NCBI GenBank assembly: GCA_963844035.1
Contig: CAWJMT010000031.1
Coordinates: 19,240 to 83,239 of the forward strand
Source: an uncultured Gemmatimonadales bacterium
Lineage (GTDB): Bacteria > Gemmatimonadota > Gemmatimonadetes > Gemmatimonadales > GWC2-71-9
Length of the DNA stretch: 64,000 nt
Direction of reading: 5' to 3'
Below are positions 8,829-64,000 of this stretch, one piece after another (the first letter of the stretch is position 1; each line of letters opens with the position of its first letter). The translations under genes and the position numbers were made by a program. The notes under the pieces were generated by a model, which saw nothing but the letters and a program-made list of their open reading frames with translations, did not search any database and was not told the origin of the DNA.

Positions 8829-9401
8829 TCAGTCCGGGTACTGGCGGAGCTCGCGGTTCAGCCGCTCGAGCTCTTCGGGAGAGGCGACGACCGGGGGGGC
8901 GCTGATCCCAACGGGCGCCGGCGTGGCGCTGCGCGTCCAGCGCCGCAACACCATGAAGAGCAGCGCCGCCGCCACGAGGATCAGCACCCCGGGCGTGAAA
9001 TAGCCCGCGAGATTGAACCCTTTCTTCGGGGGCGCCATGAGAATGGAAAGCCCGTTTTCACTCACGAACGCGTCGAGGATCTCCTGCGCGCTCTTGCCTT
9101 GATCCTCGAGCGCGAGCACCCGCTGGTGCATCTCGGGGCTGGTCGTGCACGTGAAGTCGGTGGTGCGGCAGGTATACACGTCGAGACTGCACCCGCAGGT
9201 GCAGCGCAGCTTCTTCTCGATCGCCTGCGTCGCCTCGGCGTTGTCCCGCGCGGTGACAGGCGGGAGCGGCCGGCCGGCGCGAGCCGGATCCCAGAGCTTG
9301 CCGGAGTTGTGGAGGGAATCGGGAGTCTGGGCGGGAAGGCGGGAAGCCGGGAGGGCGGGAAGCAAAAGCAGTCCCGCGGCAAGGGTAATGCACCCGCGCA
9401 T
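8829..9401 (-). CDS. ccmH: Cytochrome c-type biogenesis protein CcmH
   Basis: MRGCITLAAGLLLLPALPA signal peptide, LRCTCGCSLDVYTC (LRCxxC thiol motif) and a C-terminal TM. The track ORF 8829..9854 is over-extended into ccmF. Confidence 0.85.
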   Translation of the reverse strand: MRGCITLAAGLLLLPALPASRLPAQTPDSLHNSGKLWDPARAGRPLPPVTARDNAEATQAIEKKLRCTCGCSLDVYTCRTTDFTCTTSPEMHQRVLALEDQGKSAQEILDAFVSENGLSILMAPPKKGFNLAGYFTPGVLILVAAALLFMVLRRWTRSATPAPVGISAPPVVASPEELERLNRELRQYPD

Positions 9402-9445
9402 CAACCTTACCGCCTTCCCGCCCTCCCGCCTTCCCGCTCCCGCCT

Positions 9446-9447
<2 letters not shown>
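9329..9447. repeat. Imperfect palindrome built from GGCGGGAA-type octamer arrays; the arms flank the ccmH start codon
   Basis: Left arm 9329-9363 is gggcgggaaggcgggaagccgggagggcgggaagc. Right arm 9410-9447 is ccgccttcccgccctcccgccttcccgctcccgccttc. The loop contains ATG 9401-9399 of ccmH. Confidence 0.8.
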
Positions 9448-31495: not shown

Positions 31496-33316
31496 GCCCC
31501 GCGACCAAGGGCACCCTCACCCGCCTGTTCTTCGACGCGCTCGAGCGGCATCGGGGGCTGCCCGCTGCGCTCCGGCACAAGGTCGGCGACCGCTGGGTCG
31601 CCCTGACGCACAGCGAGGTGGAAGAGAGGGTCCGCGCCGTGTCGCTCGGCCTGCGCGAGCTCGGCGTGAGCCCAGGGGACCGGGTGTCGATCCTGTCGGA
31701 GAACCGCCCCGAGTGGGCGATCGCCGACTACGCCTGCCTGTGCGCGCGGGCAGCGGATGTACCGATCTACCCGACCCTGCCGGCGAAGCAGGCGGAGTAC
31801 ATCCTGCGCGACGCGGGCGCGGTGGCCGTGTTCTGCTCGACCGCCGCGCAGCTCGCGAAGGTGCTCGAGGTGCGGGCCAACCTGCCGGCGCTGCGGCACA
31901 TCATCGCGTTCGATCCCGCCACCCAGGACGGGGTGATGAGCTTCGCCGACCTCGAGGCGCGCGGCCGCGCCGCGGTCGGGAAGTATCCGCAGTACCGCGC
32001 TGAGGCGCTCGCGGTCGAGCCCGACCAGCTGGCGACGTTGATCTATACGTCGGGCACCACCGGCGACCCGAAGGGCGTGATGCTGTCGCACAACAATCTC
32101 TGGTCGAACGTGCTGTGACTCGCTCCAGACCATGACGGTCGTCCCGGGAGACGAGTGCCTCTCCATGCTGCCGCTGTCGCACGTGTTCGAGCGGATGGTG
32201 GGGTATACGATGTTCCACGGCGGCGTGATCATCAACTATGCCGAGTCGTTCGACAAGGTCGCCGACAACATGCGGGAGGTGCGCCCCACCGTCGTGCTGT
32301 CGGTGCCCCGCTTCTACGAGAAAGTGTACGCGCGGGTGCTCGAGAACGCGCTCGCGGGGAGTGCGGTGAAGCGCAACATCTTTTTCTGGGGCAAACGCAC
32401 CGGCGACGCATGGGCCACCTATCGCCTCGCCGGGCTGGCCGTCCCGGCGGGGCTCAAGTTCAAGCACGCGATCGCCGACCGGCTGGTGTTTTCCAAGCTG
32501 CGCGCCCGCACCGGCGGCCGCGTCAAGTTCTTCGTGTCCGGGGGCGCGCCCTTGTCGGCGGAGATCGCGAAGTTCCTGTTCAGTGCGGGTCTTCCCGTGT
32601 GCGAAGGGTACGGCCTGACCGAGACGTCCCCCGTGCTGACGATCAACCCGGTCGAGCGCATCAAGGTCGGCACGGTGGGCGCGGCGATTCCGGGCGTGCA
32701 GCTCCGCATCGCGCCGGACGGTGAGATCCTCGCCAAGGGACCGGGGATCATGCAGGGCTACTACAACAAGCCCGAGGCCACGCGCGAGGCGATCGATGCC
32801 GAGGGGTGGTTTCACACCGGCGACATCGGCGAGCTCGACGCCGACGGCTATCTGAAAATCACCGACCGCAAGAAGGATCTGATCGTCACCGCCGGGGGCA
32901 AGAACATCGCGCCGCAGCCGATCGAGAACCTCGTCAAGCACAACAAGTTCGTCGCCAACGCGGTGATGCTGGGCGACAGGCGCAAGTTCACGATCATGCT
33001 GGTGGTGCCGAATTTCGACAACCTGGAGCGGTGGACGGCGGAGCGGCGGTTGTCCGCGAGCACGCGCGCGGCGCTGATCGCGCTGCCCGACGTGCAGGCC
33101 AAGGTGGAGCGCGAGGTGATGGGCGAGCTGCGCGAGCTGGCCAAGTACGAGATGCCGAAGCGGGTGCTGCTGCTCGAGCACGACTTCACGATCGACTCGG
33201 GCGAGCTGACGCCGACGCTCAAGGTCAAGCGGCGCGTGGTGGAGAAGCGCTACAAGGAGCTGGTGGATCGCGCGTACGCCGAGGGGGATCCGCTCACGGC
33301 GTCGTTGGAGGGTTAG
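31492..33316 (+). CDS. Long-chain acyl-CoA ligase (AMP-forming) (apparent frameshift near 32115)
   Basis: LIYTSGTTGDPKGVMLSHNNLWSNV (ORF 31492..32118), then DSLQTMTVVPGDECLSMLPLSHVFER...GYGLTETSP...GWFHTGDIGELDADGYLKITDRKKD...GKNIAP (ORF 32132..33316). Confidence 0.9.
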
Positions 33317-54573: not shown

Positions 54574-54615
54574 ATAAGGGGCGGGTAATATAGCGCCAGA
54601 CTCGGGAGGAGCGCG

Positions 54616-55851
54616 ATGCAACGGCGGGAGTTTGTGACGGCGGCAGGAGCGGCGCTGGTGTCTGGGCGGGAAGGCGGGAAGGCGGGAAGGCGGGTGAATG
54701 ATCCCGGCCTCCCGCCTTCCCGCCTTCCCGCCGTTCTTCCTCAAGAGCCCACGCTCGGCCCGGCGATATTCGCTCAACGCATCGCGCGCGCGCAGGCCGA
54801 GCTCACGACGCGCAAGTGGGACATGCTCATCGTCGTGCCCAGTGCCAACTATCGCTACTTCACCGGTGACCACCCGGGTACGAGCGAGCGCCTGATCGCG
54901 CTGATCGTGCCGGCGGCGGGCGATCCCGCCATCGTGTGCCCGGCATTCGAAGTGGACCGCATCAAGGCGCATGCGGGCATTCGCGACATCCGCGGCTGGG
55001 AGGAGCACGACAACCCGTACGACCTGGTGAAAAAAGTCCTCCGGGCCCGGAAGCCGCGCGGCACCGGGACGATCGCCCTCGAGGCATCCACCGCGTTCAG
55101 CACATTCGTCGGATTGAAGGATGCGCTCGACGGCTGGAAGTTCGAGGACGCGACGGGCGTGACGACGCGGCTGCGGCTGATCAAGACTCCGGAGGAAATC
55201 GCCTTGATCCGGCGCGCCATCGCCATCACCGAAGAGGCGCTGGCGGCCACGTTCGCACAGCTCGCGGTCGGGATGAGCGAGCAAGACACGGCGCGGTTGC
55301 TTGCGAATGAGATGGAAAAGCGCGGCGCCGAGGGCGACGGCCTGGTGCAGTTCGGCGCGTCGAGCGCCTTGCCCCATGGCGGACCGGCCGGCGCCACCCT
55401 CGAGCGGGAGTCGCCCGTCCTCATCGACTGCGGCTGCCGGGTGGCGGGCTACACCTCCGACATCACCCGCACGATCTGGTTCGGGGAGCACCCCACCCTC
55501 GAGTTCACGAAGGTCTACAACCTGGTCCACGACGCCCAGACCGCCGCGATCCAGCTTGGGAAGCCGCTGTTTACACCCTGCCAGGAGATGGACCGGGCCG
55601 CACGCCGGGTGATCACGGAAGGCGGGTTCGGGCCCCAGTTCACCCACCGTCTGGGCCACGGCATCGGCCTCGACATCCACGAGCCGCCGTATCTGGTCGA
55701 AGGAAACGAAACCCGCCTCGAGCCCGGGATGGTGTTCACCGTGGAACCCGGGATCTATCAGGCGGGGAAGTTCGGTGTGAGGATCGAGGACGACTGCGTG
55801 ATGACCGAGAGCGGCGTGGTGGTGCTCAGTCAGCGACCGGCGAAGCTCTAA
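54616..55851 (+). CDS. M24-family Xaa-Pro dipeptidase with Tat-like signal
   Basis: MQRREFVTAAGAAL, then a creatinase-like N-domain, then LIDCGCRVAGYTSDITRT...HRLGHGIGLDIHE...FTVEPGIY...VRIEDD. Confidence 0.85.
   Translation: MQRREFVTAAGAALVSGREGGKAGRRVNDPGLPPSRLPAVLPQEPTLGPAIFAQRIARAQAELTTRKWDMLIVVPSANYRYFTGDHPGTSERLIALIVPAAGDPAIVCPAFEVDRIKAHAGIRDIRGWEEHDNPYDLVKKVLRARKPRGTGTIALEASTAFSTFVGLKDALDGWKFEDATGVTTRLRLIKTPEEIALIRRAIAITEEALAATFAQLAVGMSEQDTARLLANEMEKRGAEGDGLVQFGASSALPHGGPAGATLERESPVLIDCGCRVAGYTSDITRTIWFGEHPTLEFTKVYNLVHDAQTAAIQLGKPLFTPCQEMDRAARRVITEGGFGPQFTHRLGHGIGLDIHEPPYLVEGNETRLEPGMVFTVEPGIYQAGKFGVRIEDDCVMTESGVVVLSQRPAKL
54664..54732. repeat. (GGCGGGAA)n palindrome, 69 nt, lying in frame inside the M24 gene just after its signal peptide
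   Basis: gggcgggaaggcgggaaggcgggaaggcggg-tgaatgatcccgg-cctcccgccttcccgccttcccgcc; encodes GREGGKAGRRVNDPGLPPSRLPA. Confidence 0.9.
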
Positions 55852-60536: not shown

Positions 60537-63437
60537 ATGCCCACAGCACACGCATCCCTGCTGGCTGCTGATTCGTTCGAGCTCCGTCACCTAGGGCCCC
60601 GTCCCAGCGACGTGGACGAGATGGTCCGCACGCTCGGCCATAACACGCTCGACGAGTTCATCGCGGCGGTGGTGCCGGAGGACATCCGGCTGAAGCAGCC
60701 GCTTGCCCTGCCCCCGGGCCGGGGTGAGGGCGAGGTGCTCCAGGCGCTGCGCGGGATGGCGTCGCAGAACAAGGTGTTCCGGTCGTTCATCGGGATGGGC
60801 TATTACCCCTGCTTCACGCCGCAGGTGATCCAGCGCAACGTGATGGAAAACGCCGGCTGGTACACGGCCTATACGCCGTACCAGGCAGAGATCGCGCAGG
60901 GGCGGCTCGAGGCGTTGCTCAACTACCAGACGATGGTGTCCGACCTGACGGGCCTGGAAATCGCCAACGCCTCGCTGCTCGATGAGTCCACGGCGGCTGC
61001 CGAGGCGATGCATCTCACCGAAGCGGCGACCAAGCACGACGGGGATCTTGTGTACCTCGTGTCCGCAGGATGCCACCCCCAGACGATCGCTGTGGTGCGC
61101 ACCCGCGCCGAGGTGCGCGGGATCAAGGTGGTGGTCGCCGACCCGGCGACGTTCACGTTCGGTCCCGGTGTGATGGGCGCGCTGTTGCAGTATCCCGCGA
61201 CCGACGGCAAGGTCTCGGACTACCGCAAGTTGTGCGAGGCGGCGCACGCGGCAGGCGCGCTCGTGGCAGTCGCCACCGACCTGCTGGCGCTCACGCTGCT
61301 CATGCCTCCCGGAGAATGGGGAGCCGACATCGCGGTGGGGTCGAGCCAGCGGTTCGGCGTACAGATGGAATACGGCGGCCCGCACGCGGCGTTCTTCGCC
61401 ACGCGGGACGCGTACAAGCGCCACCTCCCCGGCCGCATCATCGGCGTGTCGAAAGATCCGGAAGGGCGGCCGGCGCTCCGCATGGCGCTGCAGACGCGGG
61501 AGCAGCACATCCGCCGCGAGAAGGCGACGAGCAATGTCTGCACGGCGCAGGTGCTGCTGGCGGTGATGGCGAGCATGTACGCGGTGTACCACGGCCCGGA
61601 GGGGTTGCTGCGCATCGCGCAGCGCGTTCACACGCTGACGGTCCTGCTCGCCACGGCGCTGAAGCGCCTGGGCTACCGGATCGTGCACACGGCGTACTTC
61701 GATACGCTGTGCGTTGAAGTCGAGCGGTGGGCCTTGCCCCGGTTGCTCGACGCGGCGCGCGCGCGCGGCATCAACCTGCGTACCATCGACGCCACGCACC
61801 TCGGCATCGCCCTGGACGAGCCCACCACCCTGGGCGATCTGGCGGACCTCGTCACCGTGTTCTCGCTGAACGAGGTGCTGCCGTTCATGGTGGAGGACCT
61901 GGGCGCCAAGGCGAGCACGGCGATCCCCGAGGTGTTGCGGCGGACGTCGCCCTACCTGACGCATCCGGTGTTCCACAAGCACCGCTCGGAAACGCAGATG
62001 CTGCGCTACATCGAGCAGCTGGAAGCCCGGGACCTCTCGCTCACGGTCGCGATGATCCCGCTCGGCTCCTGCACCATGAAGCTCAACGCCACGTTCGAGA
62101 TGGCGCCGGTCTCGTGGCGCGAGTGGAACCAGCTGCATCCGTTCGCGCCCCGCGAGCAGGCGCAGGGCTACCAGATGCTGTTCCACCAGCTCGAGGACCA
62201 GCTCTCCGAGATCACCGGGTTCCCCAAGGTGTCGCTGCAGCCCAACTCGGGCGCCCAGGGAGAGTTCGCCGGGCTGCTGGTGCTGCGCGCCTACCACGCG
62301 TCGCGCGGCGAGGCGCATCGCAACACCTGCCTGATCCCCGTGTCGGCCCACGGCACCAACCCCGCGAGCGCCGTGATGGCGGGGCTCAAGGTGGTGCCGG
62401 TGCAATCGGACGAGCACGGCAACATCGACGTCGCCGATTTGCGCGCCAAGGCCGCGAAGCACCGCGACACGCTGGCGGCGCTGATGGTGACCTATCCGTC
62501 CACCCACGGGGTGTTCGAGTCCACGATCCGGGACATTTGCGCCATCGTGCATTCACACGGCGGCCAGGTGTACATGGACGGCGCCAACATGAATGCGCAG
62601 GTGGGACTGTGCCGCCCCGCTGACTTCGGCGCCGACGTCTGCCATCTGAACCTGCACAAGACGTTCTGTATCCCGCACGGCGGCGGGGGCCCGGGGATGG
62701 GGCCGATCTGCGTGGCCGAGCATCTCGGGCCGTTCCTGCCCGACCACCCGGTCGTGCCGCTGGGGCATGCGCAGTCGTGCGGCACGGTGTCCGCCGCCCC
62801 GTGGGGCAGCGCCGCGATCCTGCCGATCTCCTGGGCCTACATCGCCGCGATGGGACGCGGCGGGCTGGCGCAGGCGACCAAGGTCGCGATTCTCAACGCC
62901 AACTACATCGCGCGCCGGCTCGCCGGTCATTACAACCTGCTCTACTCCGGCCAGCACGGGTTCGTGGCGCACGAGTGCATCATCGACACGCGTCCGTTCA
63001 AGCAATCGGCCGGCGTGGAGGTAGAGGACATCGCGAAACGCATCATCGACTACGGCTTCCACCCGCCGACCGTGTCGTTCCCGGAGGCCGGAACCCTGAT
63101 GATCGAGCCGACCGAGAGCGAGTCGCGGGAAGAGCTCGACCGGTTCTGCGACGCCATGATCGCGATCCGCGAGGAGATCCGCGAAATCGAAGAAGGACGG
63201 ATGCCGCGCGGCAACAACGTCCTCACTCACGCGCCGCACACCCTCGAAGACCTGGTCAGGGACCAGTGGGACCGGCCCTACTCGCGGGAGCGAGCCGGCT
63301 TCCCGGCACCTCACAATCGCCGCCACAAGGTGTGGCCGGCGGTCGGCCGCGTGGACGCCGCGTCGGGCGACCGGAATCTCGTGTGTGTGTGTCCGCCGAT
63401 GGAGACGTATACGGAAGAAGCGGCGGTAGGAGACTAG
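60537..63437 (+). CDS. gcvP: Glycine dehydrogenase (decarboxylating), single-chain P protein
   Basis: 966 aa: [46 protein letters not shown]...[20 protein letters not shown]. Confidence 0.97.
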
Positions 63438-63470
63438 GCGGGCAGGCGGGCGGGCGGGAAGGCGGGAAGC
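63437..63470. repeat. GGCGGGN-type G-rich array filling the gcvP / lipoate-ligase gap
   Basis: ggcgggcaggcgggcgggcgggaaggcgggaagc. A complementary C-rich array (cccgccctcccgcctacccgccctcccgcctgc) lies at 63882-63914 inside the next gene. Confidence 0.75.
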
Positions 63471-64000
63471 ATGGCGCAGCAGGTTCTCACCGCAGCACAA
63501 TGGCAAGTCGTCATCGACCCTGCCGGCCGTTCGGGCGCCGAGAACATGGCGATCGATCAATCTCTGCTCGACGAGGCCGAGAGATCCGGCTCCGCCACGC
63601 TGCGCCTGTACCGCTGGGACCCGCCCTGCCTTTCCTTCGGTCGCAACGACGCCGCGACCGCCCTCTACGACCGCACCAAAATAGAAGAGCTCGGGATCGA
63701 CGTAGTGCGGCGGCCCACCGGCGGCAGCGCCGTGTGGCACGAGCACGAAGTCACCTATGCCGTAGCGGCCCCGATTGATGCGTTCGGCTCGCTACGCGAC
63801 GCCTACCTCGCGATTCACCGGCGGCTCGCCGCCGCGCTGCAATCCCTGGGCGCCGACGTCACGCTCGCACCGAAGGCACGACCCGCCCTCCCGCCTACCC
63901 GCCCTCCCGCCTGCTTCGCCTCACCCGTCGGCGGCGAAATCCTGGTCCGCGGCCGCAAGCTGGTCGGCTCCGCGCAGGTCCGGCAACGCGGCGCGTTCCT
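63471..64000 (+). CDS. Lipoate-protein ligase / octanoyltransferase family (BPL_LplA_LipB domain), 3' end beyond the window
   Basis: MAQQVLTAAQWQVVIDPAGRSGAENMAIDQSLL...LRLYRWDPPCLSFGRND...VVRRPTGGSAVWHEHEVTY. Absent from the ORF track because it is open at the edge. Confidence 0.8.
   Translation, partial: MAQQVLTAAQWQVVIDPAGRSGAENMAIDQSLLDEAERSGSATLRLYRWDPPCLSFGRNDAATALYDRTKIEELGIDVVRRPTGGSAVWHEHEVTYAVAAPIDAFGSLRDAYLAIHRRLAAALQSLGADVTLAPKARPALPPTRPPACFASPVGGEILVRGRKLVGSAQVRQRGAF

Follow-up and report, generated by a model that had tools for sequence, protein, structure and literature searches.

The gene for an M24/creatinase-type Xaa-Pro peptidase in the analyzed window (the whole 64,000-nucleotide stretch of DNA from an uncultured soil Gemmatimonadales bacterium) contains, between its Tat-like start and its folded domain, an in-frame hairpin built from two complementary arrays of a short tandem unit. 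In comparison with orthologous genes, the nucleic-acid hairpin persists through evolution and the peptide that it encodes does not. The explanation that we favor, with some reserve, is that the hairpin is a self-homogenizing and possibly cassette-derived element that is tolerated in a discardable leader and has in part been co-opted there.

Anatomy of the hairpin

The element at positions 54665-54732 of the window, as read directly from the sequence, consists of 3.75 copies of the unit GGCGGGAA, an 8-nt loop, and the complementary array. The TRF analysis reported 3.8 copies of this unit at 100% and 3.9 copies of its complement at 91%. The two 30-nt arms are 93% complementary and lie 8 nt apart, and the inner 22-nt arms are 100% complementary and lie 16 nt apart. 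The 13-nt loop given in the preliminary description is therefore suitable for the perfect arms (13-16 nt) but not for the 30-nt arms (8 nt). The 16-mer formed by two units had 15 matches with no more than two mismatches in the window, compared with 0.14 expected, and none of 100 shuffled sequences reached this number. The RNA fold of positions 54655-54742 has a predicted energy of -70 kcal/mol, versus -39.4 +/- 3.2 kcal/mol for 200 dinucleotide shuffles (z = -9.5).

Counted from position 54664, the element makes up exactly 23 codons (codons 17-39) of the forward-strand ORF 54616-55851 and encodes the peptide GREGGKAGRRVNDPGLPPSRLPA; the sequence, the ORF list, and the fold agree on the 69-nt palindromic element that had been described as in frame within an M24 peptidase gene. 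Both the unit and its complement are free of stop codons in every frame, and an in-frame GTG codon is located at the loop (54694-54696). The 5' arm carries four GGG tracts with 5-nt spacing and on paper matches the G-quadruplex motif; the GGTGTCA and GACGCTAA unit families, which belong to the same class, do not match it. A search of Rfam on both strands at a permissive threshold returned only sub-threshold matches of the miRNA-precursor type, representing generic hairpin noise, and no family, and a scan of the hairpin for consensus terminators and promoters gave no match and no terminator-like tail. The coordinates of the hairpin, of the peptidase gene, and of the related arms in the window are collected in Table 1.

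Table 1. Positions in the window of the peptidase hairpin, its host gene, and its sibling copies
Feature	Positions	Strand	Details
Shine-Dalgarno-like GGGAGG	54604..54609	+	6 nt upstream of ATG 54616
M24/creatinase-type Xaa-Pro peptidase gene, 411 codons	54616..55851	+	ORF list, Pfam
Leader MQRREFVTAAGAALVS, twin-arginine motif and short hydrophobic stretch	54616..54663	+	visible motif
5' arm, G-rich, (GGCGGGAA)x3.75	54665..54694	+	letters GGCGGGAAGGCGGGAAGGCGGGAAGGCGGG; encodes (G)REGGKAGRR
Loop TGAATGAT	54695..54702	+	direct reading
3' arm, C-rich, complementary to 5' arm, CCCGGCCTCCCGCCTTCCCGCCTTCCCGCC	54703..54732	+	encodes PGLPPSRLPA; stem covariation in relatives
Conserved junction VLPQEPTLGPAIFAQ into the Creatinase_N domain	54733..54777	+	Q-E-P-x-L anchor, Pfam domain start
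Sibling copy, GGCGGGAA-type arms enclosing the ccmH start codon and signal-peptide core (MRGCITLAAGLLLLPALPASRLPA, then Q)	9330..9447	-	arms 9330-9362 and 9405-9447
Sibling arms, 419 nt apart	63436..63912	+	G-rich arm 63436-63470, partner arm 63881-63912

The peptidase gene and its leader

Two Pfam domains cover most of the peptidase, Creatinase_N (PF01321) at residues 55-189 (4e-19) and Peptidase_M24 (PF00557) at residues 197-398 (6e-63), and the protein scores below every NCBIfam equivalog cut-off. According to the Pfam boundaries and the alignment to relatives, the insert lies outside the folded domains. Upstream of the gene, the stretch GGGCGGGTAATATAGCGCC...GGAGC, which holds the GGGAGG sequence, is close to invariant in the alignment columns of close relatives. 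The MxRREF start is kept in 109 of 120 homologs, where it reads in frame through the linker, and 105 of these 109 RR-start homologs have the Q-E-P-x-L anchor at residues 32-48.

Tat signal peptides combine an S/T-R-R-x-F-L-K-type motif with a hydrophobic region behind it and a cleavage site of the A-x-A form. The peptidase leader has RREF followed by a 12-residue hydrophobic stretch, both conserved in homologs. The Tat-signal HMM (NCBIfam, E up to 10) had no match in the three N-termini searched, and the term 'Tat-like' is therefore used here as a statement at the motif level. The earlier placement of the element, behind a Tat-like N-terminus and ahead of the creatinase-like domain, agrees with both the MxRREF start and the Pfam boundaries. 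From this conservation we infer that the hairpin-encoded stretch is translated, as part of a putative export leader that is probably removed on export.

Conservation of the slot among orthologs

Across the 32 distinct loci of the ortholog clade of the peptidase (58-80% identity), a linker of comparable length occupies the position of the element. A hairpin is indicated by a fold z-score of -3 or lower at 22 of the 32 loci and by 7/8-nt periodicity at 24. Neither feature was detected at any of eight more distant loci, which have ordinary Tat signals; the full Tat signals of distant relatives are located at the same place and end in VEAQA-type sites. Since the linker is present throughout the clade, mostly built by a hairpin, and is missing from relatives at 48% and ~40% identity, the insertion must be old (at the level of the clade) and its sequence continually rewritten; the 23 residues are not the lineage-specific insertion that had been suggested. 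A wider, order-level conservation of the slot was considered and rejected upon phylum sampling, as true orthologs were limited to 12 of 151 genomes and the relatives at 48% and ~40% identity are hairpin-free.

The linkers of the orthologs are not homologous as peptides. Each of them translates a tandem-unit hairpin of its own, mostly with another 7- or 8-nt unit. Among five relatives at 78-80% identity, the position and the 8-nt register are kept and the units are GGCGGGAA, GGCGGTTA, GACGGAAA, and GGCGGGTA-CA. In close relatives, the change of unit reaches every copy in the two arms, with no conservation of the peptide, and 11 of the 30 stem pairs show compensatory change on both sides. The stem covariation of 0.297 exceeds the values for shuffles (0.161, with none of 500 reaching 0.297) and for slid controls (no more than 0.157). 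Five orthologs (L048, L009, L013, L052, and L057) have lost the hairpin or half of it and have kept the gene.

The size of the 'largest stem' in minimum free energy structures was a noisy measure because the repeat arms pair in several registers, and the z-score and the periodicity were taken instead. All compared sequences are metagenome assemblies, in which the copy number of repeats can be mis-assembled. As a separate observation, a coding stem of this stability with compensatory changes is equally expected from selection on a functional RNA structure.

Sibling copies in the window and the genome

The two other copies that had been noticed in the window, at 9329-9447 and 63437-63470, are both real, and the second has a partner arm at 63881-63912. 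Its G-rich arm fills the gap upstream of the ATG (63471) of a lipoate-ligase-like gene, and its C-rich arm lies in frame within the same gene (...ALPPTRPPAC...). Altogether, the class comprises 79 pairs of arms in the 3.47 Mb genome. The G-richer arm is located on the 5' side in 71 of the 79 pairs (p ~ 1e-13), and the 5' arm is purine-rich in 76.

Overlap with ORFs was seen for about 15-20 of the 79 pairs, and the units inside ORFs are all free of stop codons. In-frame copies occur in MeaB-, GlcF-, RadA-, MnmE-, and YidC-like genes; thus the proposed dispersed palindromic family with in-frame copies is real, and in-frame residence is general. One of these copies represents a clear net insertion of ~32 residues relative to a solved homolog. 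The right arm within ORFs is read in a single phase (...R-L-P-A) in ~14 of 17 copies (p ~ 5e-5), a bias that hints at protein-level selection or target preference and is not predicted by our main model. Sibling copies also enclose start codons and ribosome-binding regions, with the start codon located in the loop in several of them, and further members of the class lie where two stop codons converge, within the linkers of housekeeping proteins that are unrelated to each other, and on either side of PF05635 genes.

The content of the slots changes between genomes. All three syntenic sites compared with a genome of the same genus (G032) are occupied in both genomes by differing units. In 6 of 14 genomes the ccmH slot is occupied, with five different units among them. 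A synchronous genome-wide replacement of units was not supported, since the ccmH and peptidase slots differ in unit within one genome. On the other hand, 18-25 loci in one genome have a common unit, and the GGTGTCA and GGAACGC units are plentiful in distant genomes but missing in closer ones.

Association with PF05635 cassettes

Arrays of the same kind bracket the genes of the PF05635 family. All seven PF05635 loci of the genome were found to be array-bracketed by eye, and four of the seven by a strict detector, which identified 11 of 3086 genes overall. For example, GGCGGGAA arrays are located around a PF05635 gene (115 bits) at G000 C27:31410-31908, with the gene itself at 31523-31831. In the order-wide dataset, inverted arms flank 27 of 30 PF05635 loci and tandem-unit arms flank 38 of 46. 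The PF05635 protein tree follows the type and the period of the unit, and the unit families are patchily distributed over genomes. Two orthologous cassettes (L006 and L010) differ by GGGGAAG versus GGGGACG in all units of both arms. The same cassette build is present in cyanobacterial plasmids and in an Azospirillum rRNA intervening sequence (IVS). The 8-nt loop of the peptidase hairpin holds no PF05635 gene, and hairpins that lack a gene in this way most likely derive from the PF05635 cassettes or are related to them.

Changes in the number of units

Two independent assemblies, P0042 and P0046, carry orthologs of the peptidase gene with one additional seven-nt unit (+7 nt) relative to the near-identical in-frame P0047, and the extra unit places the leader and the enzyme out of frame. 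A frame change of one-unit size was also found at the dnaG hairpin (G000 C23:42250-42324), and L004 has a plain deletion. The homologs without an RR start are not a mass of out-of-frame alleles, most of them being explained by the start choice of the gene caller (P0008), a contig break in the loop (P0014), or a probable chimeric join at the palindrome (P0050). The real lesions among them are limited to P0042/P0046 and L004.

Proposed origin of the hairpin and alternative explanations

In the explanation that we favor, the peptidase hairpin is one copy of a genome-wide class characterized by 7-/8-nt tandem arms with the G-rich arm on the 5' side, and it occupies an old slot located distally in the Tat-type leader of one clade of M24 peptidases. 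The hairpin would be tolerated there because the unit and its complement are stop-free in all frames, and because the slot belongs to a leader or linker that lies beyond the folded enzyme and is probably removed on export. The units would be homogenized along each arm by gain and loss of the slippage type, and between the two arms by switching of templates or by repair inside the hairpin, so that the unit 'word' would drift or be replaced with its position, register, and pairing kept. Occasionally, slippage may add or remove one unit and break the frame. The cassettes of PF05635, a family of 23S-rRNA intervening-sequence and Avd-like four-helix-bundle proteins, share the unit families of the hairpins and are bracketed by the same arrays. 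The common unit at 18-25 loci and the patchy occurrence of GGTGTCA and GGAACGC require a step of dispersal or overwriting beyond local drift; the hairpin class showed no sign of a mobilizing enzyme, a target-site duplication, or an event of movement.

A broader version of this explanation, which we put forward tentatively, is that PF05635 proteins and tandem-unit hairpins constitute one genetic system, in which each protein clade has its own 7-/8-nt unit. The gene-less hairpins, including the Xanthomonas and cyanobacterial heptamer repeats, might then be non-autonomous copies in long-inherited slots of defined structure, where the unit family active in the genome overwrites them in situ. In in-frame slots, the G-rich arm would provide basic residues of the leader and the C-rich arm its Pro/Ser/Ala-rich residues.

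Alternatively, the hairpin, with its ~30-bp stem directly behind the leader, may be a selected cis-regulatory structure in the mRNA, such as an RNase III site like the repeat-built stems of rRNA intervening sequences, a translation brake, or a translation-coupled attenuator that sets the amount of the exported peptidase. The unit would need only to stay self-complementary and would therefore be free to change, in agreement with a stem that compensatory changes preserve, at unchanged codon positions, over the 58-80% identity clade with the peptide unconstrained. RNase III cuts stems of similar length and similar repeats in Coxiella (PMC4990558), and the enclosure of start codons and ribosome-binding regions by the siblings is also compatible with such a role. 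Nevertheless, we regard it as unlikely: the gene is retained in the five orthologs where the stem is lost or halved, the searches revealed neither a terminator-like tail nor an Rfam family, and the arms keep a periodicity that a stem does not require. Moreover, the contexts of the class, from convergent stop codons to unrelated housekeeping linkers and the surroundings of PF05635 genes, are so varied that no gene-specific logic applies.

The frameshifted alleles raise the question of a contingency (phase-variation) switch, where the gain or loss of one 7-/8-nt unit turns the exported peptidase off or leaves a leaderless form. Neither unit length is divisible by three, P0042 and P0046 differ from a near-identical in-frame allele by exactly one unit, and the change at the dnaG hairpin has the same size. 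However, ~105 of ~110 complete homologs are in frame, and thus the off-alleles are rare; they may also include errors of repeat assembly, and the L004 lesion is a plain deletion. The same elements reside in essential cytoplasmic genes and intergenic DNA, where switching would be senseless, and a slippage switch requires no palindrome. We therefore consider this function doubtful.

Taken literally, the preliminary description implied a mobile repeat resembling the Rickettsia palindromic elements (RPEs) that was recently inserted in frame into the peptidase of this lineage and added 23 new residues. The dispersed family with in-frame copies in several genes and the ~32-residue net insertion are in line with such mobility, but a linker that a hairpin encodes throughout the clade in an unchanged position and register, the lack of a visible target duplication, and a build and size unlike those of RPEs make a recent event very improbable. 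Finally, there is hardly any probability that the true start lies downstream, for instance at GTG 54694, with the element in the 5' UTR and the upstream ORF extension a high-G+C accident: the GTG at the loop is in frame, siblings have start codons in their loops, and gene callers at times picked internal starts (P0008), but GGGAGG precedes ATG 54616 by 6 nt and MxRREF is kept in 109 of 120 homologs, so this refutation fails, and the MxRREF(V/L)T peptide and the DNA just 5' of it are conserved over the 58-80% orthologs, the frame is kept despite varied hairpin lengths and units, and distant relatives carry complete Tat signals in the corresponding place.

Comparison with known repeat systems

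The peptidase hairpin belongs to a known class of convergent tandem-repeat pairs that is still without an explanation. Convergent pairs of tandem G-rich heptamers (GGGAATC) were described in Xanthomonas (Rehm et al. 2015, PMC4692102), and 'long simple sequence repeats' (LSSRs) of 5-11 nt were described in bacteria (Mrazek et al. 2007, as cited in PMC4679880). The hairpin class shares with these repeats, as they are presented in the two accounts, the tandem G-rich units of 7-8 nt, the convergent opposite-strand pairs able to form stem-loops, a preference for about four units, and a dispersed distribution mostly near gene ends. The earlier repeats were reported to be under-represented in coding regions, whereas the peptidase copy is in frame at codons 17-39. 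Our analysis extends beyond these papers by the clade-conserved slot with a changing unit and compensatory change, and by the units common to PF05635 cassettes.

RPEs are ~100-150 bp long and have a family-specific non-tandem sequence. Like these elements, reportedly described by Ogata and colleagues in 2000, the hairpins are dispersed palindromes that survive in frame in protein genes and add a peptide outside the functional core. Compared by build and size, the peptidase element differs from RPEs in its 69-nt length, its tandem 8-mer arms, and the strict G-rich-first polarity of its class, as well as in the fast turnover of units at a fixed slot and the existence of cognate gene-bearing PF05635 cassettes.

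The opa genes of Neisseria contain CTCTT coding repeats in the leader-peptide region and undergo phase variation by slipped-strand mispairing. In both cases, a unit whose length is not a multiple of three is found in a signal-peptide region, and a change in copy number shifts the frame. In contrast to the single direct array and frequent switching of opa, the peptidase hairpin consists of two complementary arrays with rare off-alleles, and its element class also occurs in non-switchable contexts.

The 23S rRNA IVS of Coxiella burnetii, which contains an S23p/PF05635 gene, has a 28-bp terminal stem that holds tandem heptamers in variable copy number and surrounds the gene (PMC4990558). Cassettes of the same build with the GGCGGGAA unit are present in our genome. 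Unlike the Coxiella IVS, the peptidase hairpin has no gene in its loop and lies in a protein-coding region rather than in rRNA, where it is predicted to be translated. Apart from the Coxiella remark, our search of the literature yielded no paper that ties PF05635 to tandem-unit arrays.

The REP/REPIN elements are associated with RAYT (Y1 transposase) genes (PMC3733652). The hairpins resemble them in the many short palindromes per genome, in a family-specific sequence that goes with a repeat-flanked cognate gene, and in positions that can be old. We rejected a REP/RAYT origin since none of the four PF01797 (Y1) loci of the genome has tandem-unit arrays within 200 nt; unlike the hairpin class, they are flanked by different, ordinary GC-rich palindromes. 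The cognate PF05635 protein also differs from RAYT in being a four-helix-bundle protein. To our knowledge, no catalytic activity has been assigned to PF05635 proteins of this fold.

Implications

Bacterial tandem heptamers and octamers, together with the pairs that they form in convergent orientation, have been on record since the 1990s and have not been explained. Proteins of the PF05635 'intervening-sequence protein' family occur widely, and we know of no role for the family outside diversity-generating retroelements. The peptidase locus provides a clean and testable case, a coding hairpin that is conserved by compensatory array-wide change with its peptide left free, and it further offers an occupied slot with an exchanged word, natural one-unit frameshift alleles, and a cassette with the same unit in the genome. 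For annotation, it is a warning that in metagenome assemblies such hairpins mislead the calling of starts, break contigs, produce chimeric joins, and give the appearance of frameshifts. If the link with PF05635 is true, it would join three puzzles, namely the heptamer repeats, the rRNA intervening sequences, and the PF05635 family, and repetitive DNA would be both a source of export leaders and protein linkers and a hazard to them. If hairpins and PF05635 proteins do form one system, then the turnover of repeats would continually remodel signal peptides and linkers in free-living bacteria.

The hairpin and its host gene

The hairpin consists of (GGCGGGAA)x3.75, the loop TGAATGAT and the complementary array, as read directly from the sequence. 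Its arms, of 30 nt each, are 93% complementary with a spacing of 8 nt, and TRF reports 3.8 copies at 100% in one arm and 3.9 copies at 91% in the other. In the window, the doubled unit has 15 occurrences where 0.14 would be expected, and as RNA the hairpin reaches a folding energy of -70 kcal/mol (z = -9.5 relative to 200 dinucleotide-shuffled sequences). All of these measures bear out the repeat element of the preliminary description, and the two other copies that it named are also real. One of them has a partner arm; its G-rich and C-rich arms, both of GGCGGG type, lie 419 nt apart on either side of the initial ~140 codons of a lipoate-ligase-like gene, within which the C-rich arm is in frame. 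Arms can thus flank native coding sequence rather than fold into a compact hairpin, as they do also in MnmE.

The hairpin forms codons 17-39 of its ORF, with the translation GREGGKAGRRVNDPGLPPSRLPA. The product carries the domains Creatinase_N (residues 55-189) and Peptidase_M24 (residues 197-398); since it falls below every NCBIfam equivalog cut-off, we class it only by type, as a predicted M24 Xaa-Pro-peptidase-type enzyme. Had the start codon been downstream of the element, as the preliminary description allowed, the repeat would be 5' UTR. However, GGGAGG stands 6 nt upstream of the ATG at 54616, an M-x-RREF-like start is found in 109 of the 120 best homologues, and 105 of these 109 have the conserved Q-E-P-x-L junction at residue 32-48, without a change of frame. 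In addition, the DNA immediately 5' of the ATG is nearly invariant in close relatives, and at the same place the more distant M24 relatives in the phylum (~40% identity) carry full twin-arginine signals of the ordinary kind, e.g. MISRRSFLGASAATLAGATATPTIVEAQA. This evidence places the start codon upstream of the hairpin, and the family is probably Tat-exported, a prediction at the level of the motif alone, as a Tat HMM gave no match to the short N-termini. The motif TAATATAG, ~25 nt 5' of the ATG, is invariant in the aligned close relatives and in the fetched loci L004 and L096; it is probably a promoter -10 region yielding a very short 5' UTR, and was not called by a consensus promoter scan.

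Coordinates of features in the window and on contigs (C) of the same genome.
Feature	Location	Remark
Hairpin element	window 54665-54732	
M24 peptidase ORF	window 54616-55851	
TAATATAG motif	window 54586-54593	
Further copy	window 9330-9447	
Arm pair, lipoate-ligase-like gene	window 63436-63912	arms 63436-63470 and 63881-63912
MnmE arms	C9:91758-91886	
dnaG hairpin	C23:42250-42324	unit GGCGGTCA
PF05635 locus	C27:31410-31908	
PF05635 locus	C27:104534-105106	
PF05635 locus	C37:130221-130718	
PF05635 locus	C12:79383-79904	
PF05635 locus	C9:145127-145438	
PF05635 locus	C30:5309-5620	
PF05635 locus	C1:103422-103583	
Y1-transposase gene	C23:11200-12200	RAYT-like
Y1-transposase gene	C5:185500-186400	RAYT-like
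Y1-transposase gene	C5:200000-201000	RAYT-like

A conserved site with a changing unit

In-frame palindromic repeats are known in Rickettsia, and the preliminary description raised the question of whether the element is a lineage-specific insertion. Its reading is supported in part: the element is real, in frame and, judging from conservation, translated, but orthologues of at least 58% identity, the threshold used here for true orthologues, carry hairpins of other units at the same position, so the idea of a lineage-specific insertion falls. The orthologue linker peptides are mutually unrelated, and each resembles a translated tandem-unit palindrome (for example TRNAERGTRN...FRVPRSAFRV, IADWRLRIAD...NPQSAIRNPQS and EGRKDGR...LPSFRPSV). 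At the DNA level, strong hairpins occupy this position with the units GGAACGC, GATTGCG, GGAGTGC, GAAATGC, GGACGGTC and others. Among 32 distinct loci of the orthologue clade, 22 have a fold z <= -3 and 24 a 7/8-nt periodicity of at least 0.86, whereas none of eight more distant loci shows either; a relative at 48% identity has a plain Tat signal. By this distribution, the ancestor of a single orthologue clade acquired the hairpin in the distal part of its Tat leader, and the clade has retained it since, with the hairpin or one arm lost in a few orthologues (L048, L009, L013, L052, L057). True peptidase orthologues are themselves patchy, being present in 12 of the 151 genomes sampled from the phylum: both sampled genomes of the same genus (G032 and G157) are entirely without the hairpin-bearing orthologue, which more distant genera have.

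Five sequences with 78-80% protein identity align across the hairpin in identical position and 8-nt register. They have in common the invariant skeleton G.CGG, and the other unit positions vary by genome (GGCGGGAA, GGCGGTTA, GACGGAAA, GGCGGGTA/CA) in every unit of both arms. Both sides have changed in 11 of the 30 stem pairs, and stem covariation is 0.297 against 0.161 +/- 0.034 in shuffles, none of 500 reaching the observed value; sliding the stem by 1-3 columns as a control gives at most 0.157. The encoded peptides, in contrast, are not conserved. It is thus the nucleic-acid fold, or whatever process generates it, that is maintained, rather than a protein segment. The main rival to the reading that we prefer is that the mRNA stem is a regulatory structure specific to this gene.

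Comparable turnover is seen at other sites. In a syntenic block shared with G032 (70-81% nucleotide identity), all three comparable sites are filled in both genomes with different units: GGCGGGAA in the genome of the window against GTACGTCG in G032 at the ccmH start, GGTGTCA against GGAACGC at a divergent promoter, and GGGGACG against GGGGAAG in an array within the pmbA coding sequence. Across 14 genomes, the ccmH signal peptide is bracketed by arrays in six (with five different units), has a partial arm in two and none in six. The ccmH and peptidase sites of one genome hold different units, which implies that unit replacement is not synchronous genome-wide.

Genome-wide distribution of array pairs

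The genome of the window (3.47 Mb, 67% G+C) contains 79 array pairs with complementary units of 7 or 8 nt, including the families GGTGTCA (~25 pairs), GGCGGGNN (~18), GGCGGTCN (~12) and AAGACGCT (~9), as well as GGAATGC, GGGGAAG and GGGGACG. In 71 pairs it is the 5' arm that has more G, and in 76 this arm is purine-rich. Most pairs are intergenic, ~11 lie within called ORFs and ~8 have the 5' end of a gene in the loop. On direct reading, GGCGGGAA and its complement are stop-free in all frames; the GGTGTCA complement has a TGA, and no GGTGTCA pair of this set lies inside an ORF. In-frame copies were found in MeaB-, GlcF-, RadA-, MnmE-, YidC- and lipoate-ligase-like genes. Compared with solved homologues, the MeaB copy is a net insertion of ~32 residues, and the MnmE arms fall in variable loops on both sides of the NKxD motif.

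In at least nine copies, the arms lie on either side of a signal peptide's hydrophobic core, with GRR/GK-type residues coming from the G-rich arm and ...PPSRLPA|Q from the C-rich arm. Among 17 copies of the 8-mer families that lie in ORFs, ~14 share a single reading phase of the C-rich arm, with the end R-L-P-A (p ~ 5e-5). This bias could reflect selection for a cleavage-site-like end, or it could reflect an origin beside in-phase GCC codons.

Association with PF05635 cassettes

To our knowledge, PF05635 cassettes with repeat arms are known only as rRNA intervening sequences. A small gene lies within four of the five array pairs spaced ~420-470 nt apart and within two pairs in relatives; it belongs to PF05635 (23S_rRNA_IVP), with weak similarity to bAvd. 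Conversely, judged by eye, all seven PF05635 loci of the genome lie between inverted tandem-unit arrays, each locus with a unit of its own; a strict detector calls arrays on both sides at four of the seven, against 11 of 3086 genes overall. Their units (GGCGGGAA, GGTGTCA, GGCGGTTA, GACGCTAA, CATAGACG) are those of abundant gene-less families, and the GGTGTCA-bracketed gene is frameshifted although this is the commonest unit family of the genome. Within the order, 54 of 61 genomes have a PF05635 gene, and inverted arms flank 27 of the 30 loci fetched; overall, tandem-unit arms were found at 38 of 46 loci and long non-tandem stems at three.

The PF05635 protein tree follows the repeat: one clade has 8-mers only, two have 7-mers of related type only, and the proteins of the GGAACGC cassettes branch off remotely. 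The unit families occur patchily from one genome to the next: GGTGTCA has 94 matches in the genome of the window, 28 in G005 and none in the two same-genus genomes, and GGAACGC has none in the genome of the window and 35-45 in G032, G035 and G047. GGTGTCA cassettes of one protein subtype were found in three genera, where they occupy three distinct genomic contexts. The gap that separates the convergent peptidase and aminotransferase stop codons, just after the peptidase stop, holds a PF05635 cassette in four relatives (L001, L006, L010, L084) and a solo GCGGGAT hairpin in L002; in L003, L005, L009 and L014 the gap is empty and the two stop codons overlap. No target duplication was visible between filled and empty gaps in the relatives compared. 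The orthologous cassettes of L006 and L010 are a single base apart in every unit of both arms (GGGGAAG against GGGGACG).

Outside the phylum, inverted heptamers bracket PF05635 genes on plasmids of Calothrix, Pseudanabaena, Stanieria and Anabaena and in a 23S rRNA intervening sequence of Azospirillum. Two cyanobacterial plasmids (Pseudanabaena, L103, NZ_CP112875.1; Anabaena sp. 90, L105, NC_019429.1) have a PF05635 gene, with long arrays of heptamers (AAAAGCT/AAAAGCC; GGTGACA), inside a CRISPR-Cas locus, with cas6 on one side and cas4 on the other.

Relation to described repeat systems

The general class of the hairpin corresponds to the convergent pairs of tandem G-rich heptamers that were described and left unexplained in Xanthomonas (PMC4692102). 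The Coxiella intervening sequence has a 28-bp stem cut by RNase III, with variable tandem heptamers, around a PF05635-family gene (PMC4990558). Our literature search found no paper on in-frame tandem-unit hairpins in export leaders, nor any description of site conservation with unit turnover or of a general PF05635 cassette link. A REP/RAYT system was rejected, since the Y1-transposase genes of the genome are flanked by a different palindrome class. These are ordinary REP-like GC-rich palindromes (e.g. GCGCCCTGAGAGGGCGC, CCCCGCCCGTCAGGGCGGG) and constitute a second, separate repeat system; similar CCCCGGGC...GCCCGGGG palindromes are present 3' of the peptidase gene in L004, L008, L011 and L013.

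Instability of the hairpins

In two homologues from independent assemblies (P0042 and P0046), the right arm is longer by exactly one 7-nt unit than in P0047, a near-identical allele that is in frame; leader and enzyme thereby fall into different frames. In L004, an out-of-frame deletion extends from the right arm across the QEPSLSPEV codons. At the dnaG hairpin, the primase part reads in frame 0 and, beyond the hairpin, a clear C-terminal domain reads in frame 2, the shift that one extra 8-nt unit would give; this is either a copy-number error of the assembly or a real frameshift or split of an essential gene. Unit-number variants may stem from such errors in short-read assembly. In P0014 the assembly breaks in the hairpin loop, and P0050 joins two gene copies head to head at the palindrome. 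In L097 (WNEL01003960.1), two different peptidase 5' parts meet head to head exactly at a GGAATGC hairpin; this join was most likely created by chimeric assembly at the palindrome, and MAG annotation near such elements calls for caution.

The best-supported reading is that the hairpin is self-homogenising and belongs to a class of elements that is known but has found no explanation; related to PF05635 cassettes, it would be translated and tolerated in a discardable leader and would occasionally do damage through slippage of its units.
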